Source of the DNA: Fidelibacterota bacterium
GTDB lineage: Bacteria; Fidelibacterota; Marinisomatia; Marinisomatales; TCS55
Direction of reading: 5' to 3'
Length of the DNA: 60,854 bases
NCBI GenBank assembly: GCA_046861385.1
Contig: JBHHTW010000010.1
Location: forward strand, 1 to 60,854
The notes under the pieces are model-generated. The model saw nothing but the letters and a program-made list of their open reading frames with translations. It ran no database searches and was not told the DNA's origin. Shown piece by piece: positions 12,716 to 35,426 of this stretch (position 1 is the first letter of the stretch; every line of letters begins with the position of its first letter). The position numbers and the translations under genes were made by a program.

Positions 12716-12717
12716 CG

Positions 12718-14304: not shown

Positions 14305-14373
14305 TTTTATGATGGTTCATTTTTTACCATTTATTTTAACCTGCAAGTATTGTAATAATTGAATCTTATTGAG

Positions 14374-14392
14374 TAGTATCACAATAGTATCA
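14374..14392 (+). promoter_or_regulatory. Candidate HicB operator (direct repeat TAGTATCA x2)
   Basis: TAGTATCA at 14374-14381 and 14385-14392 just upstream of hicA. Confidence 0.3.
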
Positions 14393-14398
14393 TAAATT

Positions 14399-14605: not shown

Positions 14606-14918
14606 ATATTTAAAAATTGTTGAATGGTCTGAAGAAGACCAAAGTTACGTAGGGTCTGTACCCGGTTGGATAGGTCCCTGTTGCCATGGAAGCGATGAAG
14701 AAAAAGTCTATAAGGAATTATGCCGGATAGTAGATGAATGGATTGAGATCTACAAGGATGATAACCAAAAACTTCCACCACCCACAAACAAGCATTACTC
14801 AGGAAAATTCATTTTAAGAACAGGATCAGAAATGCATAAAGCATTGGCTGTTCGCGCAGTTTCTGAAGGGGAAAGCCTGAATAAATATGTAGTTAAGAAA
14901 TTAAAATCAATACTTTGA
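14589..14918 (+). CDS. hicB: HicB-family antitoxin (C-terminal RHH)
   Basis: WSEEDQSYVGSVP...HG N-domain; YSGKFILR...HKALAVRA...SLNKYV ribbon-helix-helix. Confidence 0.85.
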   Translation: MKESDRYLKIVEWSEEDQSYVGSVPGWIGPCCHGSDEEKVYKELCRIVDEWIEIYKDDNQKLPPPTNKHYSGKFILRTGSEMHKALAVRAVSEGESLNKYVVKKLKSIL

Positions 14919-15026
14919 TTCCTCTTGGTTCTGACCTTGTAATTATAATGACATCTCTTTTAGACAGATATAATATTTATACTGAAGGTAAAAAGTGATG
15001 AATAAAAAATTCTACGGGTTGAACTG

Positions 15027-15305
15027 ATGAAAAAAGAAATTATTAAATCGCTGACAAATGAGTTTAAATCTTATGTCAAATTTACAAATCAGGGCGTTGA
15101 GTTCTGGTTTGCCCGGGATTTACAGCATCTGCTGGGATATACCGAATGGCGGAATTTTAAAAAAGTAATTAATAAAGCAAAGACCGCCTGTGAGACGGTT
15201 GGTTACTTAATAATCGATCGTTATGTTGATACCAGCAAAACAATTTTCGATAGTCGAACCAGAGACTCATTTAGATTTAAAAGCGATATTTTTCGAGATG
15301 GCTAA
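15027..15305 (+). pseudogene. N-terminal fragment of DinD/BRO-like DNA-damage-inducible protein
   Basis: EFWFARDLQHLLGYTEWRNFKKVINKAKTAC is the DinD N-terminus; similarity ends near 15245 and the ORF runs out of frame into the next gene; far shorter than a full DinD. Confidence 0.7.
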
Positions 15306-16503
15306 ACAGAAAACAATTATAAGCCTCGAGCAGGCCCTAACTCTCCCTTATGCTACGCAACGGTTTGTCCAATTAGGTTGGCGGGTCATTCGAATAGAAT
15401 CTCCCGGTAAACCGGGGCAAAAAACCTCCGGAGATCCAAATCGATATATTGGTGAAGATACGGGAGAGGAAGATTTGCATGCCTATTACATCGCTCCGAA
15501 TGTGGGGAAAGAAGCAATCACAATTAACCTTCAGAAACCTGAAGGTCAAGCATTGCTAAAACGAATTATTCAAGAATTGAACGTCGATGTTTTTCTATGC
15601 AATACACTTCCGAAAAGATATAAACAGCTTGGGATTGATTACAATTTGTTGAATGAAGCAAACCCGTCTCTCATTTGGTGCGGCATTTCTGCATTGGGGC
15701 CTGATTATCCGGATCGTGCTGGATATGACCCGGCGTTGCAGGCAATGTTTGGCTACATGTCTCTTACCGGAGAGCCTGATCGTGACCCTATGTTATGCGG
15801 TTTGCCGATCATTGATTTGAAAGCCGGCGATGAAGCTTTTACTCAGGTCATCCTTGCCATGATGGAAAAGCAGGAAACAGGAAAAGGGAAACGGATTGAT
15901 ATTGCCATGGCTCAATGCGCCTCATCATGGTTAATAACCGCCCTGCCTCAACTGGAGTTTGTAGAAGATGAAGCAGATCTATTTACCCGGAGCGCAAATG
16001 AACATCGCAGTTTCGTACCATCCAATTGTTACCCGACAAAAGATGGATATGTGTATCTGGCCATCGGCAGCGATTCACAATGGGAAAAGCTAACAAAGAT
16101 CAATAGGTTTGACCACCTTACTGCAGACATTCGCCTTACTAATAATGGACGGAAAGCAGACAGAGAAAATATTTATCACGATATAAGAAAAGGTCTGGAG
16201 ACGTATACAACAAATGATTTTATAGATATTTGCCTGGAAAACAATTTGGCAGTAGCGCCGGTGAATACGGTTAAAGATGTTGCTCGTCTCGATTTAATCA
16301 AAAAAATAATGATAAAAACAACACTGCCTAACGGAATAAAAGCTAACCTGTTTCCTGCTCCGATGAATACTGAATATTTAGCAACAAAGAAGAATACACT
16401 TCCATGCGCCCCAAAACTGGGGGAACATAATTTATCCGTATTATCCGAAATTGGTCTTACGAATTCCGAAATTTCAAATTTAAATAGTAAAGGTATAATT
16501 TAA
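15223..16503 (+). CDS. Family III (CaiB/BaiF) CoA transferase (IaaL-like); start uncertain (15223 or 15298)
   Basis: VIRIESP, GDPNR, NVGKEAITINL, AGYDPALQAMFG, DLKAG, PSNCYPTKDG, APKLGEHN. Confidence 0.85.
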   Translation: MLIPAKQFSIVEPETHLDLKAIFFEMAKQKTIISLEQALTLPYATQRFVQLGWRVIRIESPGKPGQKTSGDPNRYIGEDTGEEDLHAYYIAPNVGKEAITINLQKPEGQALLKRIIQELNVDVFLCNTLPKRYKQLGIDYNLLNEANPSLIWCGISALGPDYPDRAGYDPALQAMFGYMSLTGEPDRDPMLCGLPIIDLKAGDEAFTQVILAMMEKQETGKGKRIDIAMAQCASSWLITALPQLEFVEDEADLFTRSANEHRSFVPSNCYPTKDGYVYLAIGSDSQWEKLTKINRFDHLTADIRLTNNGRKADRENIYHDIRKGLETYTTNDFIDICLENNLAVAPVNTVKDVARLDLIKKIMIKTTLPNGIKANLFPAPMNTEYLATKKNTLPCAPKLGEHNLSVLSEIGLTNSEISNLNSKGII

Positions 16504-16507
16504 CCAA

Positions 16508-19045
16508 ATGATGAAAGACAAAATTGAAGCACAAATAAAAGCGCCCGCCAACAGCCCATATATTTTGCAAGGCAATGCTGCTTTTGCATTGGGTGTTATC
16601 CATGCCGGTTACCATGCGGCAACGGGTTACGCAGGAACTCCCAGCACAGAAGTAATTGATAAAACACTGGCTTTTGCACAGGATTCCATGAAAGTCGGCT
16701 GGTCGGTAAATGAAGCGGTTGCAGTGTCAACAGGCGTTGGTCATGCCATTGCCGGATTTGACTCTTTAGTGACCATGAAAATTCCTGGTGTTTTTCAAGC
16801 GGCTGATGCTATTACAACCTCCGCATTTTTTAGTGGAAAGTCAGGAGCCCTTGTGATTTTCGCCGCAACAGATTATGCGCCTTCCAGCACCCAGCACGTG
16901 ATTGATCCACGATACTTTTTTGCATCAACACGGCTCCCTGTATTACAGCCACGCAACCATCAGGAAATGTATGATATTGCTCGAACGGCTGCAGATATGA
17001 GTAGAAATTATCATACGCCTGTGATTGTTCTGGCTTCTGGGATTCTTTCACATTCAGAGGCATTGATACGGACGAAGGAGTCCAGGATAATCGAACCAAT
17101 GGAATTGCCTGACACGCTCCACGAATGGATGCTTTTACCCAGTATCGCCAGAAAAAACTATAATAAAGCCACCCAAAAACGTATTCCTTCAATTCAGGTT
17201 TGGGCTGAAACGTCAGAACTCATTACCGAAACAACCGGAAAAGATGAATGGGGTATCATTGTCTGCGGAAATACGGAAGGGACTGTTCGGGAAGTTTTAA
17301 GCAGTTTGAATCTCGACCCATCCATTCTATCCATTGGAATTACAAATCCAATTCCCAAAAAACGTATCGGTCAGTTTGCTGAAAAAATTTCAAATAACAT
17401 TTTTGTAATTGAGGATGGCGATCGATATTTAGAAGAGAAAATTCGTCTTATGGGAATAGAGGCTATTGGTAAAAATGAGGGTAGCGTTTTAACTCTGTGG
17501 ACCCCTGAAGACGTGATTCAACTTTTATCAAAACAACTGGACTTACCTCCAATCCAAAAACCAAATACAATTGAATTGGAACCATTACCCAGGCCTCCCT
17601 CCATTTGTCCAGGGTGTTCTTATAAAGCATTCGCCTTATCCGTCGCCAAATTGAAAAAAAGAAAAAAGATTTATGCAGCCTTTGGCGATATAGGTTGTTC
17701 TACACTATTATTTTATAATAACGCATTGGATACTGTTTCATGCATGGGAGCATCCGATTCTATGCGGCAGGGCTTTGTATTATCAAGGCCGGAAATGGCT
17801 CATAAAGTAATTAGTGTGATTGGGGATTCAACAGAATGTCATTCAGGATTAGATGGAACTCGGAATGCAATTTTTCGAAATATACCTGGGGTAAAAGTTA
17901 TATTGGACAACTATAGCACCGCCATGACCGGCGGACAGCCATCGCCCAGTTCCAAGGCAAATTTAGAAGGCCGTCCAAACAATTTCAGCCTAAAGGAGGC
18001 TGTGGAAGCTGAAGGGGGACGTACAATCGTCGTGGATGCGTTTGATGTTAAAGGTGTTGATAATTCATTAAAAAAAGCACTGAAATTGGCTGAGGAAAAA
18101 ATATATACAACTCTAATTCTCGAAGGGGACTGCATCCACGATGTGGAGAGAAACAAATTGGAGCGCAATCTTGAATTCAATTATGATAATTGTAAGAATT
18201 GTGATTTATGCAACATTTGTCCAGGGATTGAAACAGATGATTCAAAGACACCCCATTTTACAAGCATGTGTTCAAACTGTTCTTCGAATAACCAAGTTTG
18301 TGTTCAGCGCTGCCCCTTTGATGCAATTTCTATTATTGCCGACAATGGAAAAAGTGAAAATGATTTTCAACATATTGACATACCCAAATTCACCGAACCT
18401 GTGGAAATTGATAAAAATAAACTACCGGAATCATTGAAAATTGCTATCAGGGGAATTGGCGGTCAGGGGAATATATTCTTTGGCAAAGTTTTATCCGAAG
18501 TGGCATTACGCACTCCTTATGCTGACGCCCACATTATTAAAGGAGATACGTTGGGAATGGCAAGGCTTGGCGGATCAGTTATCTCTACATTCAGCTGCGG
18601 GAATGCATACTCTCCCATCCTGGCGCCAAATTCTGCCGACGTATTAGTGGTTATGGAAGCGAGCGAAGTTCTCCGCCCCCGGTTTTTGGAATTGTTAAAA
18701 CCCAACGGATCCATCATTATGAACGAATATTCCGCTTTACCAATTAATGCTCATAAAGAAGAATATCCGGATATTGAATCTATTCGAAAAGTGTTGGATG
18801 GCTATAAGATAATAAGCGTCGACGCGAACCAAATTGCGATAGATATGAACGACAAGAGGGCCATGACTGCCAATGTAATTATTGTTGGATTACTATCAAC
18901 AATTGAACCGTTTAATCATATTCCCAGCGAAATCTGGCAAGCAGCCATATTGGAATTGTCTCCAAATAATTTGATCAAATCCATGAACCTAACAGCATAT
19001 AGCAAAGGGAGAAATTGGATTAATAAACAAACGGTTGCACTTTAA
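16508..19045 (+). CDS. iorAB: Indolepyruvate:ferredoxin oxidoreductase, fused alpha+beta (IorA-IorB)
   Basis: GNAAFALG, YAGTPSTE, NEAVA, RPPSICPGC, GDIGC, GDSTECHSG...DNYSTAMTGGQ (TPP), CxxCxxC ferredoxin, then IorB-like GIGGQG and GMARLGGSV. Confidence 0.85.
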   Translation: MMKDKIEAQIKAPANSPYILQGNAAFALGVIHAGYHAATGYAGTPSTEVIDKTLAFAQDSMKVGWSVNEAVAVSTGVGHAIAGFDSLVTMKIPGVFQAADAITTSAFFSGKSGALVIFAATDYAPSSTQHVIDPRYFFASTRLPVLQPRNHQEMYDIARTAADMSRNYHTPVIVLASGILSHSEALIRTKESRIIEPMELPDTLHEWMLLPSIARKNYNKATQKRIPSIQVWAETSELITETTGKDEWGIIVCGNTEGTVREVLSSLNLDPSILSIGITNPIPKKRIGQFAEKISNNIFVIEDGDRYLEEKIRLMGIEAIGKNEGSVLTLWTPEDVIQLLSKQLDLPPIQKPNTIELEPLPRPPSICPGCSYKAFALSVAKLKKRKKIYAAFGDIGCSTLLFYNNALDTVSCMGASDSMRQGFVLSRPEMAHKVISVIGDSTECHSGLDGTRNAIFRNIPGVKVILDNYSTAMTGGQPSPSSKANLEGRPNNFSLKEAVEAEGGRTIVVDAFDVKGVDNSLKKALKLAEEKIYTTLILEGDCIHDVERNKLERNLEFNYDNCKNCDLCNICPGIETDDSKTPHFTSMCSNCSSNNQVCVQRCPFDAISIIADNGKSENDFQHIDIPKFTEPVEIDKNKLPESLKIAIRGIGGQGNIFFGKVLSEVALRTPYADAHIIKGDTLGMARLGGSVISTFSCGNAYSPILAPNSADVLVVMEASEVLRPRFLELLKPNGSIIMNEYSALPINAHKEEYPDIESIRKVLDGYKIISVDANQIAIDMNDKRAMTANVIIVGLLSTIEPFNHIPSEIWQAAILELSPNNLIKSMNLTAYSKGRNWINKQTVAL

Positions 19046-19054
19046 TTAGTCATT

Positions 19055-19534
19055 ATGCAAACTGCTGACAACAAAATATCTTTTACTATTAACGGGAGAA
19101 AAGTGGAGCAAACCATTTCCTCCTCCATGCTCCTTATCGATTTTATTCGAGATGAACTGAAACTAAAAGGTACAAAACCAGGCTGCCTCGGCGGGGAGTG
19201 CGGTGCTTGTACGGTATTGGTTGACGGCATGGCGGTTAATTCTTGTCTCTATCTTGCCATAAACGCTGATGGAAAATCCGTTACTACCGTTGAAGGTCTT
19301 TCCTCTGGTAATGCATCTTTAGATATGGTTCAGCAATCCATGGTGGATCATGGAGCTGTCCAATGCGGATTTTGCACCCCCGGGATAGTCATGGCCATTA
19401 AATCATATAAAAATCAATGTGACCAGAATAATCATAAACCAGGCCGGGAAGAAATAAAGAAAAGTCTGGAAGGGAATATATGCCGCTGCACCGGTTATGT
19501 TAAAATTATTGATGCTGTTGAGGCGTTGTTCTAA
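19055..19534 (+). CDS. Xanthine-dehydrogenase-family 2Fe-2S subunit (IaaIJK-like complex)
   Basis: GCLGGECGACTV, QCGFCTPG, GNICRCTGY. Confidence 0.9.
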   Translation: MQTADNKISFTINGRKVEQTISSSMLLIDFIRDELKLKGTKPGCLGGECGACTVLVDGMAVNSCLYLAINADGKSVTTVEGLSSGNASLDMVQQSMVDHGAVQCGFCTPGIVMAIKSYKNQCDQNNHKPGREEIKKSLEGNICRCTGYVKIIDAVEALF

Positions 19535-19536
19535 AC

Positions 19537-21843
19537 ATGAATCAGGATAAAAAATTTACCGTTATCGGCAAACGCATTCCCAAAATCGACGCCAGAGACC
19601 GGGTCACAGGTAAATCGGTTTTTGGATATGATCTAGAATTACCGGGGATGCTCCACGGGGCTATTTTACATTCAAAATATCCTTCAGCAATTATTAAGTC
19701 CATCGATACTTCAAAAGCGAAGAAACTCGCTGGTGTTGAATGTATCATCACAGCAGACGATGTTGACACCAATAATCTCAACTATCTCCAGGATCATCCT
19801 GTTTTAAAAAATGAGGAAGTGAATTGTATTCGTGACGAAGTCGCTGCCGTGGCGGCTGTATCAAAAGAAATCGCCATGAAAGCACTGGAATTAATCGAAG
19901 TGACCTACGTTGAACGGAAAGGTGTTTTTGATCCTTTCGATGCGCTGAAAGATGATGCTCCTAAAATCAATAAATTCGGAAAGGGAAATACACGTCATCA
20001 AAATATTTCTGAATCATTTCATTATGAACACGGAGATTTAGAAAAAGAAAAGAAAAGAAGTACCTGTATTATCACCCGGCAATATGTTCTTCCAAAAGTG
20101 TCCCCCACATGCTTGTCTCCCAGTAGTATTACTGCAAGTTATTCTGTTGAAAACGATATCCTGACACTTCACAGTTCCACCCAGGTGCCCTTTTTATATC
20201 AAAGGGAAATATCTCACGTGCTTAAAATGGATCCGTCCAAAATCCGGGTGATTCAACCCATTATTGGTGGCGGATTTGGAACAAAACTGGATATCCATCC
20301 TTTTGAACCGATTTGCGCTCTTTTATCGATGAAAACCGGTAAACCGGTTCAAGTTTTATTTAGCAGAGAGGAAGAATTTCACCATTCTGCCATCCGGCAA
20401 TCCATGGTCATTGACTTAACAACCGGCGCAGACAAAAACGGACGATTTACTTTCAGGGAAGTAAAAGTGACCAAAGATAACGGAGCCTATACTTCCTGGG
20501 GAGCCAAAACTTCCTTTGTGATTATGCAGACATTTTCATCGTTATATCAGGTGCCCGCCTGCGTATACCATGCCGATGCCGTTTATACCAATAATGTTTT
20601 TGCCGGGTCAATCAGAGGGTTTGGTAATCCACAAGCGACCTTTGCCCTGGAAAGGAATATTGACTTAATGGCCGAAGAATTGGGAATGGACCGGACTGAA
20701 ATTCGATTAATAAACGCGAATTTTCCTGGAGAAATTTCTGGACAGGGTCTTGAATATCACTCTTGTGGTCACAAACCTGCCCTGGAAACAGTTATTAAAC
20801 AAAGCGGTTATTTGAATATACATCAGCAAAATGATTCAGGCAGATATAAAAGAGGGATTGGTTTTGCTTCCATGCTGCATGTGGGGGGTGGCGCCAAGAT
20901 TTACCGGTCTGACGGTTGTGGAACGACACTCAAACTAGACCCATATGGCTACCTGACCATTATTACAGGATCAAGTGAAATCGGACAAGGTTCGGAAACA
21001 GTATTGGCCATGATAGCAGCAGAAGAGTTGGGAATAGAATTAAATAAGATAAAAGTCATCAATACAGATACAAATGTGAAACCCTGGGATGTGGGTGTTC
21101 ATGCATCCAGAACCAGCTTTGTGGCCGGGAATTCAATATTGGGAGCCTTGAAAAAATTAAAAGAGAAACTGTTGAAAAAAGCGTCTCAGCTCCTAAATAC
21201 AACAAGCGATGATTTGGTATTTGAATCGGGCGAGATTAAATCGATAAAAACAAGTGATTCATTAAAGATTGATAAAATTGTTAGAGAGCTGCATTTTAAA
21301 CCTCCTCATGAATTATGTGAGGTTTCATATTTTTACGAACCGTCCAGTCAATTTCAAGATAAGAATTTCAAGGGTAATGTATCCGGCTGTTATGCGTTTG
21401 CTGCTCAGGCGGTGGAAGTTGAAGTGGATACATTAACCGGAAAAGTAGAAGTATTGCATGTACATGTGGGTCAGGATGTTGGGAAAGTCCTAAACCCCTT
21501 GGGGCTTGAAGGTCAGATAGAAGGTGGTGTTGTCATGGGGATGGGTTACGCTTTGACTGAAGAAATGATTTATAAAAACGGATATTTGCAAAATACTACT
21601 TTTCACGATTATAAGGTTCCGACTCCGCGAGACATCCCGGAGATTCATTTTTATCCGATTGAGACACATGAGAAAACGGGCCCCTATGGCGCGAAAGGCA
21701 TGGCAGAGGCTCCTCTGGTTCCGACTCCTGCGGCTATTGCAAATGCTGTATCTAATGTGTTGGGCGTTGAACTTAATTCACTCCCAATCACTCCAGAAAA
21801 AGTACTGAAAGCCATTTACGAAAAACAGTCTGGAAATAATTAA
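19537..21843 (+). CDS. Xanthine-dehydrogenase-family molybdopterin subunit (candidate indoleacetate 2-hydroxylase)
   Basis: STQ, IGGGFG, GSIRGFGNPQ, EIGQGSET, HASRT, QIEGG, GAKGMAE motifs. Confidence 0.88.
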   Translation: MNQDKKFTVIGKRIPKIDARDRVTGKSVFGYDLELPGMLHGAILHSKYPSAIIKSIDTSKAKKLAGVECIITADDVDTNNLNYLQDHPVLKNEEVNCIRDEVAAVAAVSKEIAMKALELIEVTYVERKGVFDPFDALKDDAPKINKFGKGNTRHQNISESFHYEHGDLEKEKKRSTCIITRQYVLPKVSPTCLSPSSITASYSVENDILTLHSSTQVPFLYQREISHVLKMDPSKIRVIQPIIGGGFGTKLDIHPFEPICALLSMKTGKPVQVLFSREEEFHHSAIRQSMVIDLTTGADKNGRFTFREVKVTKDNGAYTSWGAKTSFVIMQTFSSLYQVPACVYHADAVYTNNVFAGSIRGFGNPQATFALERNIDLMAEELGMDRTEIRLINANFPGEISGQGLEYHSCGHKPALETVIKQSGYLNIHQQNDSGRYKRGIGFASMLHVGGGAKIYRSDGCGTTLKLDPYGYLTIITGSSEIGQGSETVLAMIAAEELGIELNKIKVINTDTNVKPWDVGVHASRTSFVAGNSILGALKKLKEKLLKKASQLLNTTSDDLVFESGEIKSIKTSDSLKIDKIVRELHFKPPHELCEVSYFYEPSSQFQDKNFKGNVSGCYAFAAQAVEVEVDTLTGKVEVLHVHVGQDVGKVLNPLGLEGQIEGGVVMGMGYALTEEMIYKNGYLQNTTFHDYKVPTPRDIPEIHFYPIETHEKTGPYGAKGMAEAPLVPTPAAIANAVSNVLGVELNSLPITPEKVLKAIYEKQSGNN

Positions 21844-21846
21844 ACA

Positions 21847-22710
21847 ATGAATTTTCAAACGATTAGCCCACAAACCACTGATGAACTTTTAGAAATGATC
21901 AGACAGAATCAGGGAAAACATTTCAGGTTCGGTGCCGGATACACGGATTTGTTACCAGAACTACAATCAGAGATGGAAGATGGTTTAACCGTTATCAATC
22001 TTGCAAAATTAAAAGATGATTATTTTATATCAATCAATCTTTCGGAAGATGGAATCAGAATTGGCGCACTGACAACAATGTCCGACGTATTATCCAGTAA
22101 ACACCTCCAAAAATTCCCTGTCTTAATTGAAGCGGTTGAAAGTCTGGCATCTACCCAGATCAGGTCTGTAGCCACCGTTGGGGGGAATTTATGTACTGCT
22201 TCCCCGGCCGGAGATGTCTCTTGCGCTTTGATGGCTCTAAACACATCATGTGAAATATTGGACACAGATGGACAAATTAGAACCGTGCCGCTTACTCAAT
22301 TTTTTACCGGTGTGAAAACAACCACATTGAAAACGAATGAAATACTACGAGGCGTTTTAATTCCTCGTCAAGATTCTGGAAATAAAATTATTTCCGGATT
22401 TATCAAAATTGGAAACCGTAACTCTATGGAGATAGCGCTGGTTTCCCTAGCATATCATATAATGGTAGATAGAAATGGCGTTATTACAAAAGCTGGAGCA
22501 GCTGTGGGTTCTGTTGCAGAAACAATCAAATATACAGAATTGGCCTGTGAATTTTTATTGGGGAAAAAAATGGATCGATTGTCTGAAAAGGATAAACAAA
22601 CATTTGCTGATCATGTTTTGGAATATACAAATCCCATTTCTGATATCCGTGCATCTGCATGGTATCGTCGCAAGGTTCTATGGAATGTAACCAAAAGTAT
22701 TCTGGAATAA
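21847..22710 (+). CDS. Xanthine-dehydrogenase-family FAD subunit
   Basis: AGYTDL, QIRSVATVGGNLCTASPAGD, PISDIRASAWYR. Confidence 0.88.
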   Translation: MNFQTISPQTTDELLEMIRQNQGKHFRFGAGYTDLLPELQSEMEDGLTVINLAKLKDDYFISINLSEDGIRIGALTTMSDVLSSKHLQKFPVLIEAVESLASTQIRSVATVGGNLCTASPAGDVSCALMALNTSCEILDTDGQIRTVPLTQFFTGVKTTTLKTNEILRGVLIPRQDSGNKIISGFIKIGNRNSMEIALVSLAYHIMVDRNGVITKAGAAVGSVAETIKYTELACEFLLGKKMDRLSEKDKQTFADHVLEYTNPISDIRASAWYRRKVLWNVTKSILE

Positions 22711-22725: not shown

Positions 22726-22767
22726 AACAATAAAAAAGGGAGAAAAAATTCTCCCTTTTTTATTGTT
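22726..22767. terminator. Bidirectional intrinsic terminator
   Basis: aacaataaaaaagggagaa-aaaa-ttctcccttttttattgtt, 19-bp perfect stem with A/T tails, between convergent genes. Confidence 0.9.
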
Positions 22768-22783: not shown

Positions 22784-24145
22784 TTATACTGTGGGCAATC
22801 CTTCCAGCGCTTTCAGGTTTTCGGTGACTTCTTCATCCGTCATGGCGTGGTCTTCGAGATTACCAGCAAGGAAATTGGAATAGGCGGACATGTCAAAGTA
22901 TCCATGACCTGATAGGTTAAACAGGATGACTTTTTCTTCTCCGGCTTCCCGAGCTTCGATTGCATGTTTCACAGCTCCATGAACTGCATGGCTGGATTCC
23001 GGTGCAGGAACAATTCCTTCGGTTTTTGCAAAGGTAATTGCCGATTCGAAACAATCGACTTGACCATACGCTTCTGCTTCAATTAACCCATCCTTTACCA
23101 ACTGGGATAAAAGGGGAGAATCGCCATGATATCTCAGCCCACCAGCGTGAATGGGTGGAGGTACAAATCCGTGTCCCAGTGTATACATAGGCGACAATGG
23201 TGTTAACTGTGCAGTATCGCCAAAATCATACCGGAATTCACCCTTGGTCAGGGTCGGACACGATGCCGGTTCAGTTGCAACAAAACGCGTATCTTTTCCA
23301 TTGATTTTGTCTCTCAAGAATGGGAATGCTAATCCGGCATAATTGGATCCGCCGCCGCAGCAACCAATAATAATATCGGGATATTCGCCGGCAATTTCCA
23401 TTTGTTTCATTGCTTCCTGTCCCACAACCGTTTGATGGAGGAGAACGTGGTTTAACACAGAACCGAGAGCATACCGGGTATCATCTCTCGTGGCTGCATC
23501 TTCAACTGCTTCGGATATTGCAATACCGAGACTACCTGGAGTGTCCGGCATTTTTTCTAGAATGGCTCTTCCGGCATTGGTGTCTGGTGAAGGACTGGCT
23601 ACGATCTGTGCTCCGTATGTTTCCATCAGTGCTTTACGGTACGGTTTCTGATCAAAACTGATCCGGACCATATATACTTTGACTTCCTGTCCAAACAGGT
23701 TCCCGGCAAAGGCCAGTGAACTTCCCCATTGTCCAGCACCCGTTTCAGTGGCAAGGCGCATAACGCCCTCTGCTTTATTAAAATATGCTTGAGCTACAGC
23801 GGAATTCGGCTTATGACTTCCGGTCGGACTGACACCTTCATATTTATAATATATTTTGGCAGGTGTATTTAATGCTTTTTCCAACCCGGTTGCGCGAATC
23901 AAAGGAGACGGTCTCCAAATTCTCAATGCCTCCAAGACCGGTTCCGGTATATCAACAAATCGATCCTGACACACTTCTTGAAGAATTAACCCCATAGGAA
24001 ATAAGGGGGCCAAATCATCAGGTCCGATGGGTTGACCGGTTCCTGGATGAAGAATCGGAGGTGGTTGGTTCGGCATGTCTGCTACAATATTATACCATTG
24101 TTTCGGTATATCTTGTTCAGATAATACAATTTTCTTTTGATTCAT
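22784..24145 (-). CDS. trpB2: Tryptophan synthase beta chain, type 2 (stand-alone TrpB2)
   Basis: [22 protein letters not shown] (PLP Lys), [34 protein letters not shown]; start at 24145 has AAAGGAAG RBS; no trpA nearby. Confidence 0.92.
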
Positions 24146-24389
24146 GTGACTTCCTTTCAGAGTAGTGGGAGGAGGATTACTATTAAAAAACCGGCGAGCC
24201 GATTTAAGAGTACGAGATATGAAATTGCCATTCATATTAAAAGAATATCCCGACATGAGGATACAATAATCAAGTATTTTTTTATTTAATGTGTTTTAGT
24301 AAAATGCCGTTGCGTTCCAGTCGTTATTACTTAAATAATACATGGTGCAGACAATCCACTAATTATAATCAAAAGAAAGACTAATCTAA

Positions 24390-25409
24390 ATGTTGAAGAA
24401 TAATATCAATACTGTTCGTCTAATGTCTAATGAGAATCCATTTGGTCCTTCGCCGAAAGCTCTAGAGGCAATTAATAAATACAGTAAAGACATTCATTGC
24501 TATCCAGGATGGTATCCTAAAAAATTAAAAGCAAAACTTGCATCAAAATACCAAGTATCTCCGGAAAATATTGCTGTCTCTGCAGGGTCCTATGAACTCA
24601 TAAATCTTATTACCCGGTTTTTAGTTGCGGGTGATGAGGAGATCCTTACCTTTGATAATACATTTATGGCTTATAGTTACAGTGCAAAGCGTAATGGAAG
24701 AAAATGTGTTATCGCAAATATGTCCGGCTTTGACTGCGATTTGAATGATCTCGTTCCCCTTTGCGGAAAGAAAACAAGGGTCATATTTATTGCCAATCCA
24801 AATAATCCGACAGGAACCATTGTTACTGCTAGTTCACTAAAAAAACTATTAAAAACGATATCCACTGATATTTTGGTTGTTGTAGATGAAGCCTATTTTG
24901 AGTATGTCTCTGATGAATCGTATCCAGACACTGTTTCACTCCAAAAAGAATTCCCAAACTTAATAACCCTCCGTACCTTTTCAAAAATATATGGATTAGC
25001 CGGAATCCGAATCGGATATGGAATAGCCAATGAGAAACTGGTTAAAATACTCGAAGGCAACCGACTTTTGCGCTCTATAAACTATTTAGCTGAAAAAGCA
25101 GCTGAAGCAGCAATAGATGATTTCGATTTTATAAACCAATCAGCAAAATATAATGAACTAGAACGTACTAATTTACAGAAAGAATTAACACAGCTTGGAT
25201 TTAATGTAATACCCTCACATGCAAATTTTTTATACCTGCCTTTTGAGAATAATGATAAAAAGAATAATGTATATGCACAATTAGCCGATCACGGGTTAAA
25301 GGTTTGTGATTTAGCAATTTTTGGACATGAAAAAGCTTTGCGAATCACTGTTGGAAAAAATGATGCCAATATTCGCATCATTAATTGTCTCGCTCAGATA
25401 AAAGAATAA
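24390..25409 (+). CDS. HisC-like class II PLP aminotransferase (candidate aromatic amino acid aminotransferase)
   Basis: SNENPFGPSP, NPNNPTG, DEAY, RTFSKIYGLAGIRIGY, LRITVG; a second paralog sits in the his operon. Confidence 0.85.
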   Translation: MLKNNINTVRLMSNENPFGPSPKALEAINKYSKDIHCYPGWYPKKLKAKLASKYQVSPENIAVSAGSYELINLITRFLVAGDEEILTFDNTFMAYSYSAKRNGRKCVIANMSGFDCDLNDLVPLCGKKTRVIFIANPNNPTGTIVTASSLKKLLKTISTDILVVVDEAYFEYVSDESYPDTVSLQKEFPNLITLRTFSKIYGLAGIRIGYGIANEKLVKILEGNRLLRSINYLAEKAAEAAIDDFDFINQSAKYNELERTNLQKELTQLGFNVIPSHANFLYLPFENNDKKNNVYAQLADHGLKVCDLAIFGHEKALRITVGKNDANIRIINCLAQIKE

Positions 25410-25757
25410 ATACAATCATTTAATAACTTTAGATATTTTGAAATAAGTATTTTTCATTTCCCCTTTTGCGGGCAAGTTATTTTATGTTTAATCATGAAAA
25501 ATACTAATTAATTTATTTTATCCAACTTGGGGAGTAAAATTCGCCCTGAAAACAAAGACTTGATCCCGTGATTTTTTCTAAAGCGGTAGTTTCCTTTAAT
25601 TCTTTCCTGCCCACCGGAACTGAAATCAGGGCAGTTACAGGTTAAGAAAAGTACTGTAGATAACTACTATCTATTTCTACACAACTTTTTGAAGATTGCA
25701 TTATACCCTTACACTAATTGTATTAAGATAGGTTTTGGAGAAATTTGTAAAATCCTT

Positions 25758-25807
25758 GCAAACTATATAGTTTGCTTGAATATAGTTCACATGTGAACTA
25801 TATTCAA
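25758..25807. promoter_or_regulatory. Tandem perfect palindromes (18 bp + 32 bp): candidate MarR operator overlapping a sigma70 promoter
   Basis: gcaaactatatagtttgc (25758-25775) and ttgaatatagttcacatgtgaactatattcaa (25776-25807); the latter contains TTGAAT-N17-TATATT. Confidence 0.75.
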
Positions 25808-25859
25808 TTATCGATAGTTATGATTATTAATTCTTTTACCCAAAAATTGTATTAAAGAG

Positions 25860-26315
25860 ATGAATATGAGTTATGATAACCCAGCGGGAACCATGGAAAA
25901 AACGACTGGATTTCTAATGTTTAGAACGGCAAGGGGAATGAAAAAATTGCTGGATACCCGATTGAGCGAATTCAACATCACCTCCTCCCAGGCAACGGTG
26001 TTAAATACCCTAAGTTATCAGGACGGCCAATCTCTGTCGGATATTGGGAAAAGTATTCACCTTGATAAACCGGCCATCACCGGTTTGGCTGACAGAATGG
26101 AAAAAGATGGATTGGTTGAACGGCGGCGAACATCTTCAGATCGAAGAATCATTCAGCTCTTTTTTACAGAAAAAGGAAAAAAACTCTTTCATCAGATCGA
26201 AAAGGTTATTGTGGACGTCGATAATGAACTGGTGGAAGCACTTAGGGAAAAAGAAATCGAATCGCTGCATTCAATGCTGCAACGAATATGGAATAAATCA
26301 AACGGACAACCATAA
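25860..26315 (+). CDS. MarR family transcriptional regulator
   Basis: ITSSQATVL, LDKPAITGLADRMEKDGLVERR, DRR, TEKG winged-helix motifs. Confidence 0.92.
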   Translation: MNMSYDNPAGTMEKTTGFLMFRTARGMKKLLDTRLSEFNITSSQATVLNTLSYQDGQSLSDIGKSIHLDKPAITGLADRMEKDGLVERRRTSSDRRIIQLFFTEKGKKLFHQIEKVIVDVDNELVEALREKEIESLHSMLQRIWNKSNGQP

Positions 26316-26357
26316 CAAAGCGCCAATGCGCTGTATAAAATAAAAAGGGTCTTCACT

Positions 26358-27524
26358 ATGACTGTAAACGTAATGGAAGAATGGAAAGGGAAATCTCTCG
26401 ATGATATTCTTTGGCTTTGTCAGGAAACAATCGAAGATGCAGACGTAATGACCGTCAAGCGCTGGAGAGAAGCCGGTGGAAAAGTGGTGGGTCATTTCCA
26501 GGTATATTTTCCGGAAGAAATTGTTCATGCTGCCGGCATGCTGCCGATGAAAATGTTTGGCGCTTCGGTGGAAACAAAAAATTCAGACAGTCATTTTGGT
26601 TCTTATCTCTGCTCAATTATGAAAACCTGTCTAGAACAGGTTCTCTCCGGTCGGGTGGAACTGGATATGTTTGTCACCCACCCCATTTGTGACGCTGCCC
26701 GAAACCTGGCGCCCATCTGGGGAAGAAATTTTGATTATCCATGCCAGATTCTTTATCTACCTCAAAACCCCAATTCCGGTTATTCTGTTCAATATTTAAA
26801 AGAAGAATACGAGAGAATTAAAGGAGTCATCGAAGGAGTAGCCGGAAGAAAAATCACCAACGAAAATTTAGAAAATTCTATTTCTGTTTTTAATAAGAAC
26901 CGGGCATTACTAAGGAAATTATATCAAATCAAAATGGATCAACCCTGGTTGGTTTCTATCAATGAGGCCTATGTGCTAATGGCCATTGGGGGATTAATTC
27001 CCCGGGAAGAGCATAACGAAATTCTGGAAGAAGTTCTCCCGATGATTGAAAAAAGAAAAAATAGGAAACAGGATCGGATCCGGGTAGTATTTGAGGGCGG
27101 TTTTTGCGAACAGCCACCATTGGATATGTTGAGAACCATTGGCCGTTCCTGCTATGTGGTGGATGATGATTTATTAATCGGCCTCCGGTATTTGCTGGAA
27201 GATGTTGAACCGAACGGAGACCCCTTAAAGGCCATGGCAGAAGCCTATATCCATCATTCCACTTACAGTCCGGTGCAGCACGATCTCCGAAAACCAAAAG
27301 AAAGAATGTTGAGGGAACGGGTTCAAAATGCAAAGGCTGAAGCTGTCATCATTACCGCAGCAAAAATGTGTGAACCTGGGCTGGAAGAACAAGTGACTTA
27401 CACCCAGGAGTTTGATAAAAATAATACACCATACTTCGTTAGTGAATTTGAAGAAAATATGACCAGTTTTGATCATTTGGAAATACAATTAGAGACATTC
27501 GTTGAAAATTTAATATTTGATTGA
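26358..27524 (+). CDS. bcrC: Class I benzoyl-CoA reductase subunit C (BcrC/BadD-like)
   Basis: [43 protein letters not shown]; synteny with had/oah/dch. Confidence 0.85.
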
Positions 27525-27532
27525 GGTAGATA

Positions 27533-28831
27533 ATGAATAAGTTAAAATCAAAGAATATTGTTGGTAGAGGAACCCGTGAAGGAGCATCTTTATTTAGAGA
27601 TTGGTTCCAGGCCTTGACCAAAAAAGCAGAAAAAGGTGAAACCGCCGCCTATGTATTTGTCATGGGCAGCATTGCGGAAATACTCCGTGTATTTGACCTT
27701 CCTATGGTTTTTCCGGAAATCCATTCGCTACAAACTGCTGTGAGGCATGTGGCGGATGATTACCTGAATATAGCGGAAGATTATGGCTATTCTCCTGATA
27801 TCTGCGGGTATGTGAAAGCAGACTTTGCCATGCAGATGCAAAATGGTAAACACCCCATGGGGCAAATTCCAAAACCGGGGATTGCCGTGCTAACCAATGC
27901 CTGCAACACCTATTTGAAATGGGGAGAAATCTGGGAAAGAATTTATGATATTCCCATGTTCTCGATTGATGTCCCTGCCACACGGCAAGCCGGAACCAGA
28001 TCCTGGCCGGGCGATGAACAGTTTGAACGGGAAAGAAAATACGTCAAAGCACAACTACTGGAATTGATTGAACTGTGTGAAAAAGTAACGGGAAAGAAAT
28101 TTGATATTGACCGCCTGAGGGAAATCCTGGGCCATGTGAATACCATGAGCCGAGGCTGGGAAAGGGTGTTGGAATTAAATCAAAGCAGGCCTTCCCTTTT
28201 CAATGCGCTCACTGACGGAACCGTCTATCTGGGAATGTCCAATGTATTCAGAGGAACAGCGGAAGGGGCCCGATTCTTTGATCGACTGGTTGAAGAAATG
28301 GAATATATGTCTGCCAATGGAATCGGAACGCTCACAGATGAAAAATACCGGTTGAGTTTTATTGGTGTTCCCTGTTACCCGATTTTTCGACGGTTTAATG
28401 AAATGTTTACTGAATGGGGAGGCTCCTTTGTCATGTCCACTTATTTATGGTTTGCCGCCGGCGGATCCAATTTGGGGTTTCAATATGACTTAAATAATCC
28501 CATTGATTCCCTTTCCGAAGGGGTTCTCATCAGCGTACGGGATGCTATGGATTCCATGTTTCATCCTGAATTGACCGTTCTGAAAAAAGCCAATGAGTTT
28601 AATATTGACGGTGTCGTGTACCACCCCATCAAGAGCTGTCGTACCACCTCAGCCGGGATGGCAGACAATCGTCGCTCACTCATGGAAAACAGCGATCTGC
28701 CCAGCCTGTTCATTGAATCGGACATGATGGACTCACGGGTAGTCGGTGAAGCACAAATGAAAAATCGTATTGACGCCTTTTTTGAGGGATTGGCATCCCG
28801 AAAAACAAGGGCCGCAACGGTAGGAGTTTAA
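27533..28831 (+). CDS. bcrB: Class I benzoyl-CoA reductase subunit B (BcrB/BadE-like)
   Basis: [39 protein letters not shown] motifs. Confidence 0.85.
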
Positions 28832-28832
28832 T

Positions 28833-29642
28833 ATGGCATTAGCAGCAGGAGTGGACGTGGGATCCACACAAACAAAATCGGTTATTATTAATGAAGATCT
28901 GAAAATTGTGGGCCGTTCCTTGATTGACACCGGCGCCAATGTCATCAAGGCAGCAGAAAAAGCCTATCTGGAGGCATTGACTGACAGCAATCGGCGGGAA
29001 GAAGAAGTCGCGTATGTCATCGGAACCGGTTACGGAAGGTATAAAGTGACTTTTGGAGACACCCAGGTAACGGAAATCAGCTGTCACGGGCGAGGGGCCG
29101 TTCACATGTTCCCCAGCACCCGGACCGTTTTGGATATGGGAGGACAGGATACGAAAGCCATTGCCGTTAGTGAAACGGGAGAAATTATTGATTTTTGCAT
29201 GAATGATAAGTGCGCTGCCGGAACCGGCCGCTTTCTCGGAGCAGCATCCATGGCCCTGGATATTCCCCTAAACGAATTGGGGCCCACTGCCCTCCGATCT
29301 CAAAAACCAGTGAAAATCAGTACCACCTGTACCGTTTTTGCTGAAACTGAAGTATTATCTTGGTTGGGAAAGGGGAAAAAAATAGAGGACATTCTCCTGG
29401 GAGTACACAAGTCCATTTCATCTCGGTCCATCTCTTTGCTAAGACGGGTTGGTCTGAATGAACATATCACCTTTACCGGAGGAGTTGCCAAAAATATTGG
29501 TATGGTAGAAGTTCTCAATGAGAATCTGGAGATGAAAATGAACGTCAGTGAGGAATCTCACTACATGGGTGCCCTCGGGGCGGCCTTGTTTGCCATGGAC
29601 CACATTCAGGAAAGCCGGTTGCCGGCAGGAGGCCAAGCATGA
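28833..29642 (+). CDS. bcrA: Benzoyl-CoA reductase ATP-binding activase subunit (BcrA/BzdQ-like, short form)
   Basis: [45 protein letters not shown]; symbol partly by synteny. Confidence 0.75.
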
Positions 29643-30445
29643 AAAATTATGTTATCGGAGTAGACGTGGGGTCTACCTACACAAAAGCCGTCATTCTGAC
29701 GCCCAACAAAGAGCTGGTGGGTAAAGCCATGGTTCCCACCGGATTTAAGCTGGATAAAGCATCTGAAAATGTCTACGATCAAATCCTAAAAGATTCCGGC
29801 GTATCGAAAGATGAAATCGGCTATGCCATTTCCACCGGATACGGTCGCCATATGGTTCCATACAGGGATATTACCGTGACCGACTTAACGGCCACTGCCC
29901 GGGGATCAAACTATTTGTTTCCCGGAACACGAACGGTACTGGATATTGGCGGGCAGACCATGAAAGCCAGCCGCCTGGACGAAAGAGTAAAAGTGAAGTC
30001 CTTTCGTCTGAACGATAAGTGCGCCGCCGGAACCGGGGCTTTTCTGGAAAAAACAGCCCGGTATATGGGGTTTGAAACAGAGGAAATCGGACCGCTCGTT
30101 CAGACATCCAAAGATGAAGTTCCCATCTCCGGTGTGTGTGCCGTCTTTGCCGAATCAGAAGTCATTAATCAGCTATCTTTAGGTTCAGCACCGGCGGATA
30201 TTATGCACGGCGCCATGTCTTCACTGGTCAAGCGTGCCATTCAATTATTAAAGCGGGTGAAAATGGAATCACAGATTACACTCACCGGTGGCATTATGCG
30301 TTTTAAAACCATGGTGGATGTTTTGACGGTAAATGTTCCTGTCAAAATCAACGTCCCTGACGGTGAAATGGTTCAATTTACCACAGCCCTCGGTGCCGCC
30401 ACGCTGGCCCTTCAGCGACTGGATAAAGTTAGGGCATCTGCATGA
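29639..30445 (+). CDS. bcrD: Benzoyl-CoA reductase second ATP-binding activase subunit (BcrD/BzdP-like)
   Basis: [34 protein letters not shown]; overlaps previous gene; symbol by synteny. Confidence 0.7.
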
Positions 30446-30705
30446 GCGAACTCTGCGGAATATCATCATCTCCCAAAGATGAAGAATTGATGGCAGAAGG
30501 GTGGGTAAAACAATTCACCTGTGGTGAGCCAAGATTATCCGAATCCTGTGAATTATTTGAATCCATGGGCAGAGAGGTACACCTGGAAAAAATGAGAAAG
30601 GAAGATCAACCCATGGGGGCTGAATGTGACCTGTGCTTCATAACTTGTGGCGATGATATGATGACCATTTGGACCCGGGTAAAACAGGAGAGCCCAGCCA
30701 AATGA
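30442..30705 (+). CDS. Small hypothetical protein with CxxC, coupled to bcr genes
   Basis: ATGA overlap with the upstream stop; EGW...EPRLSE...EVHLE...CDLC...IWTR pattern. Confidence 0.7.
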   Translation: MSELCGISSSPKDEELMAEGWVKQFTCGEPRLSESCELFESMGREVHLEKMRKEDQPMGAECDLCFITCGDDMMTIWTRVKQESPAK

Positions 30706-30748
30706 TTCATGAATTGACAGGGACTTTTTATGAACAGGAGTTGGCTCC

Positions 30749-32467
30749 ATGATACAACGCCCGATTCATTCCAGCTCAATTCCTTTACCTGATTATGCCC
30801 AAAACCTGGCCGTGCTGTTAAAAAATAATGCTGAACAGTTTTCTGATAATCCCATTTATCAGGAAGTGAATAACCAATCCTATGTGCCGTTGAAATGGAA
30901 TTTGTTTTATCAACGGTTACGATCCATTCAATCCTGGCTCCTCGATCATGGATTTCAGCCCGGCGACCGGATGGCTATTTTATCCAGAAATTGCCAAAAA
31001 ATGCTGGAGTTGGAGCTGGCTGTCATGTCCATGGGAGCCGTATCTGTGCCAATATTTTCAGGATATCCTCCCCGCCAGGCCAACCAGCTTCTTCAATTTT
31101 GCAACCCAACCATGGTGGCGGTTGATGATTTGAATCAACTTCAAAAAATCGAATCGCCGGATCAATTCAGCCATATCATCACCTTTTCATCTGTCGAAAA
31201 GAACACCCTATCCAATCTGTTTCATGTTGATACATTAACCTCGGCTCATCCCTTGACGGAAATTGTAGGATCAACTGTTCCCCCGGAGACTGTTTCTTTG
31301 ATGATGTACACTTCCGGAACCATGGGAATACCGAAATGTGTTCAATTGACCCATCAAAATATCCTGTCCCAGCAGGCGGCTATGAAAGCATTATGGGATT
31401 TAAATAGTCAGGATCGTTTTTTGTCTTATTTGCCCTGGCATCACAGTTTTGGGGGTATCTTTGAAAAGTATGCCGCCATTGTTAATGGCGCCCTATTGTC
31501 CTTGGAACACGGATACGGAAAAAATATTGATATATTGCTGGAAAACTGGGATAAGGTTCGCCCAACTGTCTTTTTCAGTGTTCCCCGTATTTACCAGGCA
31601 ATTGCCACGCGCATAATCCAGGATAAAGAAATAGAAAAAATGATTTTTCATCCTGAATTGCGGTTTATTTTCACCGCTGCCGCTCCCCTGCCAAAAAACA
31701 TTGCCGATCTTTTTGACGACCATGGAATTCCGGTGGTGGAAGGTTGGGGACTCACCGAGACTTCTCCCTGTTGTACTGTCACGGATCCCACCATTCCGCG
31801 GGAGCCGGGGGTAGTGGGAAAACCCATTCCAGGAGTATTTGTTAAAATAGATGAAAATGGTGAAATACTGGTTCAGGGTCCCAATGTGATGACCGGCTAC
31901 TACCGTAATCCGGAAGCAACCAAAAAGGTAATGAAAGAAGACGGGTGGTTTTGTACCGGCGATGTGGGTGAATATACGGAATCCGGGTTGAAACTGGTTT
32001 CCCGTAAGGACAGGATTTTTAAGTTAGTCAATGGCGAAAAAGTGGTCCCAACGGAGATTGAAAATATTATTGCCAAAGACTGTGCTTACCTGGCCCACGC
32101 CTTTGTCACCGGAAACGGACGGGATTATCCGGTGGTTCTGCTCTTTCCCAATAAGAATTTATTTTCCCAAAAACCCGATGAATCTCTCCTGCTGACGAAT
32201 TGTCAATGTCCCTCAGGAATGGAGGATTATGTTCAATGTCTGACCAAATGTCTTAATAAATGGAATCAATCCATCGATGCGAAATTTTCCAGATATAAAA
32301 AAGCCATGTTGATCGATTATGAACTCAGTATTGAAAATGAAGAGTTAACGCCGTCCATGAAACTGTCACCCAACCGGGTGGGGAACATTTTTAAAGCCAG
32401 GATTGAATCTCTTTATGAAAATGAAGATATTGATTCTGAAGAAGTTTATGTTATTAATTTGGAATAA
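30749..32467 (+). CDS. AMP-forming acyl-CoA synthetase (long-chain-ligase-like clade)
   Basis: YTSGTMGIPK, YLPWHH, EGWGLTETSP, GWFCTGDVG, RKDRIFKLVNGEKV, ELTPSMK; AGGAG RBS. Confidence 0.9.
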   Translation: MIQRPIHSSSIPLPDYAQNLAVLLKNNAEQFSDNPIYQEVNNQSYVPLKWNLFYQRLRSIQSWLLDHGFQPGDRMAILSRNCQKMLELELAVMSMGAVSVPIFSGYPPRQANQLLQFCNPTMVAVDDLNQLQKIESPDQFSHIITFSSVEKNTLSNLFHVDTLTSAHPLTEIVGSTVPPETVSLMMYTSGTMGIPKCVQLTHQNILSQQAAMKALWDLNSQDRFLSYLPWHHSFGGIFEKYAAIVNGALLSLEHGYGKNIDILLENWDKVRPTVFFSVPRIYQAIATRIIQDKEIEKMIFHPELRFIFTAAAPLPKNIADLFDDHGIPVVEGWGLTETSPCCTVTDPTIPREPGVVGKPIPGVFVKIDENGEILVQGPNVMTGYYRNPEATKKVMKEDGWFCTGDVGEYTESGLKLVSRKDRIFKLVNGEKVVPTEIENIIAKDCAYLAHAFVTGNGRDYPVVLLFPNKNLFSQKPDESLLLTNCQCPSGMEDYVQCLTKCLNKWNQSIDAKFSRYKKAMLIDYELSIENEELTPSMKLSPNRVGNIFKARIESLYENEDIDSEEVYVINLE

Positions 32468-32470
32468 GAA

Positions 32471-35399: not shown

Positions 35400-35426
35400 G
35401 AAATATTTTTTCAGGAGTTTTCAGGA

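Follow-up and report, generated by a model that had tools for sequence, protein, structure and literature searches.

The window, that is, the whole stretch of 60,854 nucleotides analysed here (positions 1–60,854 of contig JBHHTW010000010.1, assembly GCA_046861385.1, Fidelibacterota bacterium), represents a contig end (G000:C73) in a genome of 2.43 Mb (104 contigs, 97.85 % complete). Located between an iaa-like gene cluster (3528–22710) and a benzoyl-CoA reductase (bcr)-like cluster (25860 onward), the segment 22784–25409 carries a gene for TrpB2, a stand-alone tryptophan synthase β-like enzyme, and a divergently oriented gene for a HisC-family aminotransferase (AT). Together with a fused 2-oxoacid:ferredoxin oxidoreductase of the IOR type from the iaa-like cluster, these two gene products are considered here for a possible role in the oxygen-free degradation of indolic compounds via tryptophan.

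TrpB2 and the divergent aminotransferase

The trpB2 gene (22784–24256, minus strand, as the longest open reading frame [ORF] of 490 aa) codes for a pyridoxal phosphate (PLP) enzyme passing the curated cut-offs of NF009057 (738.3 bits, cut-off 366) and TIGR01415 (648.5 bits, cut-off 518.85) and failing the canonical trpB model TIGR00263 (139 bits vs a cut-off of 392.45). The solved chains matching it best are 6hul_B, 4qys_B and 6hte_B, with 409–456 bits to TrpB2-type chains; 6hul_B aligns with 456 bits over query residues 9–426 of 453 and includes the GSHK motif, the lysine of which we take to be the PLP-binding residue. The predicted activity is the condensation of indole with serine or O-phosphoserine. 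The first 37 codons of the annotated gene are probably a non-coding 5' leader, since stop codons occur there in the relatives G242, G347 and G207 and a ribosome-binding site (GAAAGGAAG) precedes a later ATG at about 24145, which as the true start would yield a protein of 453 aa. The closest TrpB2 loci in other genomes carry the label Candidatus Neomarinimicrobiota.

The AT gene (24390–25409, plus strand, 339 aa) encodes a HisC paralogue, proposed to act as tryptophan:2-oxoacid aminotransferase. It matches Pfam Aminotran_1_2 (184 bits) and passes the cut-off of the hisC model TIGR01141 (299.2 bits, cut-off 276.55), the match beginning only at model position 21. AT represents a second HisC-like gene, since the his operon of the window carries its own hisC (50856–51908, 311.6 bits), to which it is only 31 % identical. 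The second-best solved relative of AT is a "putative phenylalanine aminotransferase". Judged from the alignment, AT is devoid of two features of bona fide HisC, i.e. an N-terminal arm of about 16 residues, absent from all 12 island orthologues, and a conserved Arg located 13 residues before the Arg of the RITVG motif. The latter position is occupied by Cys in AT and all 11 orthologues (12/12) and by Arg in the HisC of the window as well as in 3get, 4r2n and 3ffh; this Arg presumably corresponds to the ligand of the phosphate group of histidinol phosphate in E. coli HisC.

Coordinates and families of both genes, the divergence of AT from the operon hisC and the placement of the pair between iaa-like and bcr genes had been proposed in the initial annotation and agree with the present results, as does its statement that the window lacks trpA and other trp genes: profile searches of the window detected none besides trpB2. 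Across the genome, trpA, IGPS (trpC), trpD and canonical trpB were likewise not found, leaving TrpB2 as the only match to the TrpB family. A TrpE-like fragment on another contig scored 231 bits, which is under the cut-off, and tryptophanase was not found in the genome (best match 40 bits).

The region between the two start sites (24146–24389) is regarded as a divergent control region and contains a conserved block. In an alignment of 11 orthologous regions, a TTGATT-N17-GAATAT-like element just upstream of trpB2 proved invariant across the island-bearing relatives and appears promoter-like with respect to trpB2. Sigma-70 promoter scans returned sites no more numerous than in shuffled sequence. 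A Trp leader ahead of trpB2 was found neither by inspection of the leader nor by an Rfam scan, the latter detecting no element anywhere in the window when gathering scores were applied, nor any within 24050–26000 at E ≤ 1; the consensus fold of the leader alignment, −1.69 kcal/mol from badly trimmed rows, carries no information. At its 3' side, trpB2 (ending at 22784) is separated from the end of the iaa operon at 22710 by a terminator-like hairpin with a 19-bp stem (22726–22767, reported on the minus strand).

The catabolic island and its inheritance in the phylum

The catabolic genes form a 41-kb island (3528–44941) inserted between TetR-men and aroC. Its left flank (82–3153, minus strand) comprises genes for a menF-like protein, a thioesterase, a UbiE-type methyltransferase and TetR, and its right flank (44999–48496, plus strand) comprises aroC, aroK, aroB and aroQ, followed by the his operon, argGH and proBA. 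In genome G063 of the same family (locus L109), TetR directly adjoins aroC and the site is empty, while in G281 of the same genus it holds about 27 kb from MarR-bcr to the second molybdenum (Mo) enzyme (loci L110/L111), with the iaa genes, trpB2 and AT all absent. The order Mo hydroxylase, trpB2 (minus), AT (plus), MarR and bcr is kept, where contigs reach, in the window and in eight relatives (G123, G198, G242, G169, G204, G207, G347 on two contigs, and G240). Since one relative has the empty site, another the bcr genes only, and the window and eight relatives add the further block, the segment 3528–25409 (iaa genes, trpB2 and AT) behaves as one presence/absence unit that is gained or lost separately from the bcr module.

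This coupling was also evident from a sample of 401 genomes of the phylum, 113 of which possess TrpB2 and 11 the fused IOR. TrpB2 occurs in 9 of the 11 IOR-positive genomes, all nine in island synteny, vs 104 of the 390 others; in family f1, seven of 65 genomes have TrpB2, seven have the fused IOR, and these are the same seven. The two IOR-positive exceptions are G260 (83 % complete), where the iaa core and IOR reside on an 8.9-kb contig ending at IOR, and G193, whose IOR is 54 % identical and has no iaa neighbours. Co-localisation of trpB2 and AT with IOR-containing iaa clusters, suggested in the initial annotation as a test, is thus mostly borne out, including in other phyla (see below), with some island variants lacking the pair.

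Tryptophan auxotrophy does not explain the pattern of TrpB2 and island, because 44 of the 62 non-island f1 genomes are without trpA and still have no TrpB2, and the island host G240 has trpA. Overall, trpA scored over the cut-off in 18 of 70 f1 genomes and in none of the eight island-bearing ones. With trpA not over the cut-off in 52 of 70 genomes, auxotrophy for tryptophan seems to be common in the f1 lineage.

Two further arrangements were observed within the phylum. In G217, trpB2 lies directly upstream of genes for TetR, UbiE, thioesterase and menF (locus L088, G217:C46, 9310–13759), with neither iaa nor bcr genes; the site looks like the product of an excision of the iaa operon (an island remnant) or like the ancestral site. 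A thioesterase and a menF-like gene are also found within 4 kb of trpB2 in the Cytophagales loci L041 and L047. The 73 %-complete metagenome-assembled genome (MAG) G347 carries the trpB2-AT-Mo hydroxylase region twice, in diverged form (contigs C23 and C17; L089 and L090), as well as two IOR copies (C45 and C54), reflecting a genuine duplication or the binning of two strains into one MAG.

The iaa-type core (3528–16503, plus strand) encodes a FadB-like protein, hydantoinase A- and B-like proteins, a small ATC-hydrolase-like ORF, an IaaF-type acyl-CoA dehydrogenase, a thiolase-like protein, the small and large subunits of a B12-dependent mutase, a HicAB insertion and a family III CoA-transferase. 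The hydantoinase-like pair, the mutase pair, the CoA-transferase and the Mo hydroxylase all lie in one cluster, as matches at the family level only. The acyl-CoA dehydrogenase displays the motif LIGGGTSEIL at residues 366–375 (GGG at 368, in place of YEG), and GGG instead of YEG is the signature of the IaaF subclass according to its authors (PMC8360864); the motif recurs in the acyl-CoA dehydrogenases of G405, G408 and seven metagenome loci. The core is followed by the fused IOR (16508–19045, plus strand; α plus β-like), proposed to convert indolepyruvate to indoleacetyl-CoA, and by a three-subunit Mo hydroxylase assigned by family matches (19055–22710, plus strand; 2Fe-2S, MoCo and FAD subunits), proposed to hydroxylate the indole ring at C2. 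The IOR assignment derives from matches below cut-off to TIGR03336 (362 bits over residues 19–607, cut-off 650.9) and to IorB models covering residues 642–839 (98.7 bits, cut-off 238). Curated equivalog cut-offs for caprolactamase, IOR and 4-hydroxybenzoyl-CoA reductase (4-HBCR) are not reached by proteins of the window. No ligase, and hence no IaaB-type indoleacetate-CoA ligase, is encoded within 3528–25409; the sole acyl-CoA ligase (30749–32467) belongs to the bcr module, which in G281 occurs without iaa genes.

The bcr module (25860–44941, plus strand) contains genes for MarR, bcr-like CBAD, the acyl-CoA ligase, HadB-like and PanE-like proteins, an activase, had, oah, a REP transposase, dch, an SDR protein, a thiolase and a 4-HBCR-like Mo enzyme. 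The latter (41266–44941) closes the module as the second Mo enzyme of the window and is most like 4-HBCR (α-subunit 837 bits, cut-off 994); an action on a substituted benzoyl-CoA, e.g. 2-aminobenzoyl-CoA, is speculative. The gene for the REP-associated tyrosine transposase (37821–38384; 72 bits, cut-off 80) lies between oah and dch. Within the iaa operon, 918 bp separate the genes for the mutase large subunit and the CoA-transferase, a gap taken up by genes for a toxin, HicA (68 aa), an antitoxin, HicB (109 aa), and a fragment of Bro-N (14399–15305). They are read as a recent insertion, because the two flanking genes abut in relatives (e.g. L122).

Recurrence in other lineages

A metagenome scan with IOR yielded 13 loci, in eight of which the junction following the Mo hydroxylase is visible; TrpB2 and AT are both present there in L122, L123, L124 and L132. 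Among the best 80 TrpB2 loci from all genomes, L007, L010, L011 and L042 stood out. Genome G405, which harbours L011 and carries a Deferrisomatales label, has on one side of a 48.7-kb contig genes for IorB, an IorA::GltD fusion, TrpB2, VWA, XdhC, MoxR and a Mo hydroxylase, with a stop-to-start gap of 4 bases between trpB2 and iorA. Diverging from these on the same contig are genes for a CoA-transferase, a GGG-type acyl-CoA dehydrogenase, mutase small and large subunits, hydantoinases A and B, and a second Mo hydroxylase. In G408 (Burkholderiales label, genome of L042), trpB2 is placed between hydAB and a block coding for CoA-transferase, Mo hydroxylase, mutase, acyl-CoA dehydrogenase, ligase and thiolase. 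A canonical TrpB1 is encoded elsewhere in G405, G406 and G408. L045 was rejected as an iaa locus, this label being a false positive that had rested only on two Mo hydroxylases.

As a control, 301 genomes of the phylum of G405 were sampled, 30 of which possess an iaa-type hydantoinase B gene (hydB). TrpB2 was detected in 27 of these 30 genomes vs 206 of the 301 overall. Loci were compared for 20 of the 29 places of trpB2 in hydB-positive genomes and for the 40 best-scoring places in hydB-negative ones: an IOR-family gene is present in 12/20 and 4/40, respectively (Fisher p = 8e-5; related genomes are not independent, and several of the contigs are short). The usual company of trpB2 in hydB-negative genomes is a trpE-like gene and trpB1.

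Four of these 60 loci (L154, L174, L195 and L198) have a class I aminotransferase gene between trpB2 and the IOR gene. These aminotransferases are 56–93 % identical to each other and only 22–24 % to AT of the window, i.e. they are non-orthologous to it. Since two unrelated aminotransferase families occupy the same place, the arrangement points to functional need rather than to shared descent. The trios of L174, L195 and L198 belong to hydB-negative genomes. In L154, NuoE-like and NuoF-like genes are additionally situated between trpB2 and the IOR gene. This locus (G594:C55, 694–10717, minus strand) consists of six genes, coding for TrpB2, the class I aminotransferase, NuoE-like, NuoF-like, an Fe-S/GcvH-like protein and an IorA::GltD-like fusion (1171 aa), and is a candidate for a compact module leading from indole to indoleacetyl-CoA with an NAD(P)-linked electron outlet.

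In a FastTree phylogeny of TrpB2 (126 rows), the rows linked to IOR or iaa genes are spread over at least four separate clades: that of the Marinimicrobia island, a Deferrisomatales-like one of 8 rows, another of 16 rows, and the Burkholderiales row. The 13 changes counted on the tree exceed the real number, as the "other" rows include short island contigs. The nesting of the island clade among further TrpB2s of Marinimicrobia suggests that the island took up a TrpB2 of resident type and did not import it together with the iaa genes.

Proposed entry of indole and alternative explanations

The following proposal builds on what was directly observed: the families to which the genes belong, the structure of the island, the joint inheritance of its parts and their recurrence in further lineages. 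TrpB2 would condense indole with L-serine (or O-phosphoserine) to L-tryptophan, AT would transfer the amino group of tryptophan to a 2-oxoacid to yield indole-3-pyruvate, and IOR would convert the latter with CoA to indoleacetyl-CoA and CO2. This last step would stand in for the ligase reaction of the Aromatoleum pathway, where indoleacetyl-CoA is the first thioester and is formed by IaaB (PMC8360864). Mo-dependent hydroxylation at C2, ATP-dependent opening of the lactam, CoA transfer, the B12-dependent mutase, the IaaF-type decarboxylating dehydrogenase and β-oxidation would then lead to 2-aminobenzoyl-CoA, the end product of the iaa pathway (PMC9613470), and the adjoining bcr/dch/had/oah module would dearomatise the ring. 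By our own bookkeeping from the published scheme, tryptophan (C11) would give one CO2 each at IOR and IaaF, acetyl-CoA and 2-aminobenzoyl-CoA. The carbons of serine and C2 of indole would be recovered as acetyl-CoA and two CO2, and serine would therefore act as a recyclable handle activating C3 of indole. All substrate assignments as well as the direction of flux are inferred from sequence and gene context.

The iaa module of the window shares with the iaa cluster of Aromatoleum aromaticum EbN1 and A. evansii (reportedly treated in studies by Ebenau-Jehle 2012 and Schuhle 2016 and 2021) the hydantoinase-like pair, the B12-dependent mutase, the family III CoA-transferase, the Mo hydroxylase and the FadB-like and thiolase-like proteins, a likeness at the level of protein families. 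An acyl-CoA dehydrogenase with the GGG motif of the IaaF subclass is also shared (criterion from PMC8360864). Unlike the Aromatoleum cluster, the iaa module of the window has no IaaB-type ligase and instead contains the fused IOR, the HisC-type aminotransferase and TrpB2; it further differs in its host, probably a Marinimicrobia MAG, and in being joined to a bcr module in one island. Likeness to TrpB2 of the Thermotoga/Sulfolobus type (PDB 6hul, 4qys, 6hte) consists in family membership, based on two curated models and solved chains, and in the stand-alone state with no trpA found, whereas TrpB2 of the window is embedded in a catabolic island and gained or lost with it. TrpB2 is generally accepted to serve biosynthesis by salvaging indole (PMC2700814, PMC1854888).

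In Bifidobacterium, exogenous indole is converted to indole-3-lactate via TrpB (PMC11085991, PMC12672768). This conversion has in common with the present proposal that a tryptophan synthase β chain captures free indole and that tryptophan is passed on to further metabolism; it differs in that indolelactate is excreted, with neither ring cleavage nor energy-yielding mineralisation. PMC12672768 names the tryptophan synthase β chain and an aromatic lactate dehydrogenase, and the abstracts of both papers make no mention of iaa, bcr or IOR genes. With the classical anaerobic indole pathway via oxindole, isatin and anthranilate, the proposed route shares the substrate, the independence of oxygen and the convergence on anthranilate or 2-aminobenzoyl-CoA (PMC6221969). 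The classical pathway starts with hydroxylation of free indole at C2, whereas the proposed route would start with alkylation at C3 by serine. The 2018 indole review (PMC6221969) describes only the oxindole route and states that the functional genes by which microbial communities transform indole have yet to be addressed. The iaa chemistry, TrpB2 as indole scavenger and the capture of indole by TrpB with further conversion in Bifidobacterium are already known; our literature searches found no publication that proposes TrpB or TrpB2 as entry to anaerobic degradation or mineralisation of indole.

Several observations weigh against a catabolic role of TrpB2. The gene is located on the strand opposite to the iaa operon and is convergent with it; the terminator-like hairpin between them and the promoter-like block of its own indicate that trpB2 is monocistronic, because this hairpin separates it from the operon, and exclude its co-transcription with the iaa genes. 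The conserved 17-mer ACAATAATCAAGTATTT occurs once in the window with no second copy at ≤3 mismatches, so that no shared operator is seen. Outside the island context lie 11 of the 20 TrpB2 loci fetched from the phylum, and across phyla most of the best 80 TrpB2 loci have unrelated or trp-operon neighbours. Since G217 and G290 retain a TrpB2 89 % identical to that of the window without iaa or bcr genes, the enzyme is useful on its own. In the metagenome loci L125 and L126, which are otherwise syntenic with the island, AT is kept and trpB2 gives way to a gene for a 241-aa transglutaminase-like protein (L125, 16204–16929) at precisely the same place and on the same strand; L128 and L129 have undergone rearrangement, with neither TrpB2 nor AT in view. 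Because TrpB2 is replaced in L125 and L126 while AT stays, TrpB2 is an accessory part of the module and AT the more constant one. In the control phylum, no IOR is seen in 8 of the 20 trpB2 loci from hydB-positive genomes, some of the contigs being short. Characterised TrpB2 enzymes are described as high-affinity scavengers. The term "indole-scavenging" is also applied to TrpB2 in PMC2700814. Moreover, the island possesses Mo hydroxylases and a lactamase-like enzyme, while the documented anaerobic route starts with hydroxylation of indole at C2 to oxindole (PMC6221969).

On weighing these points, we lean slightly towards a reading in which TrpB2, the HisC-type AT and the fused IOR make up the entry branch of an accessory island that degrades indolic compounds without oxygen. 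Taken by itself, a catabolic role of TrpB2 is likewise favoured by a little, and the steps of AT and IOR, from tryptophan via indolepyruvate to indoleacetyl-CoA, are rather likely. The route via tryptophan put forward in the initial annotation thereby gains from co-inheritance, recurrence and an AT without HisC features, and loses from the monocistronic trpB2 and its retention without iaa genes in G217 and G290; the linkage of trpB2 persists as the same block in the window and eight relatives and breaks down in the four metagenome loci L125, L126, L128 and L129. It is possible, and put forward more tentatively, that a widespread, so far unrecognised oxygen-free indole route starts with C3 alkylation by serine, with TrpB2, long a puzzle, as the catabolic entry enzyme in many anaerobes of a TrpB2-aminotransferase-IOR module supplying ring opening of the iaa type, a module assembled independently in Marinimicrobia, Desulfobacterota-like lineages and Burkholderiales.

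The simpler explanation of plain indole salvage, in which TrpB2 supplies a host devoid of the trp pathway with tryptophan for its proteins and is an island passenger or co-selected since indole and tryptophan share a niche (AT and IOR still feeding external tryptophan into the iaa pathway), appears unlikely, albeit not remotely so. It agrees with the failure to find trpA, IGPS, trpD and canonical trpB in the genome, with the lack of trpA in all eight island-bearing f1 genomes, with a monocistronic trpB2 that G217 and G290 retain in the absence of iaa genes and that is dispensable in L125 and L126, and with the description of TrpB2 as indole-scavenging (PMC2700814). The genomic evidence nevertheless weakens it: the 44 non-island f1 genomes without trpA have no TrpB2 either, the island occurs in the trpA-positive G240, G405 and G408 own a canonical TrpB1 besides the TrpB2 of the cluster, and in G405 trpB2 is only 4 bases away from iorA. 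No Trp-sensing leader was found at trpB2 of the window, and a biosynthetic gene coupled to genes for the destruction of its product appears sensible mainly as a funnel.

Two other explanations are very improbable. In an anabolic two-way salvage, TrpB2 would capture indole, and a reductively operating IOR would together with the aminotransferase turn indoleacetyl-CoA into tryptophan, the trio being a tryptophan-making module. IOR-dependent assimilation of aryl acids occurs in methanogens, and the trios in the hydB-negative genomes of L174, L195 and L198 would fit; in the window, G405 and G408, however, the genes are embedded among IaaF-type catabolic genes, and the IorA proteins of L154, L011 and L007 are fused to or located beside NAD(P)-linked modules, for which, judged from redox potentials, oxidative decarboxylation would be a better match than reductive carboxylation. 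The classical route would have the Mo hydroxylases form oxindole and isatin, the lactamase-like enzyme (2-aminophenyl)glyoxylate by ring opening and the IOR-like enzyme 2-aminobenzoyl-CoA, leaving TrpB2 and AT unrelated to indole catabolism. Phenylglyoxylate oxidoreductases belong to the same superfamily as IOR, and the window offers Mo hydroxylases in two sets, a pair of hydantoinase-like proteins and an IOR that stays under the curated cut-offs; oxindole, isatin and anthranilate are, moreover, reported anaerobic intermediates (PMC6221969). This route, however, needs none of the B12-dependent mutase, IaaF-type GGG dehydrogenase, FadB and thiolase, all of which are present and conserved, and it leaves the recurrence of TrpB2 and aminotransferases beside IOR unexplained; hence its probability is judged to be as slight as that of the two-way salvage.

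If TrpB2, AT and IOR indeed form the entry branch of the island, serine-dependent activation of indole would represent a new logic for the oxygen-free attack on an N-heterocycle, in which a biosynthetic enzyme has been turned to use as the opening step of degradation. This would extend the physiological role of TrpB2, so far limited to "indole salvage", and would provide a concrete gene set for tracking the turnover of indole and tryptophan in oxygen-poor waters, sediments and digesters. Degradation of aromatic rings would also be assigned to the Marinimicrobia, a lineage that, going by the accessible literature, few papers link to benzoyl-CoA reductase.

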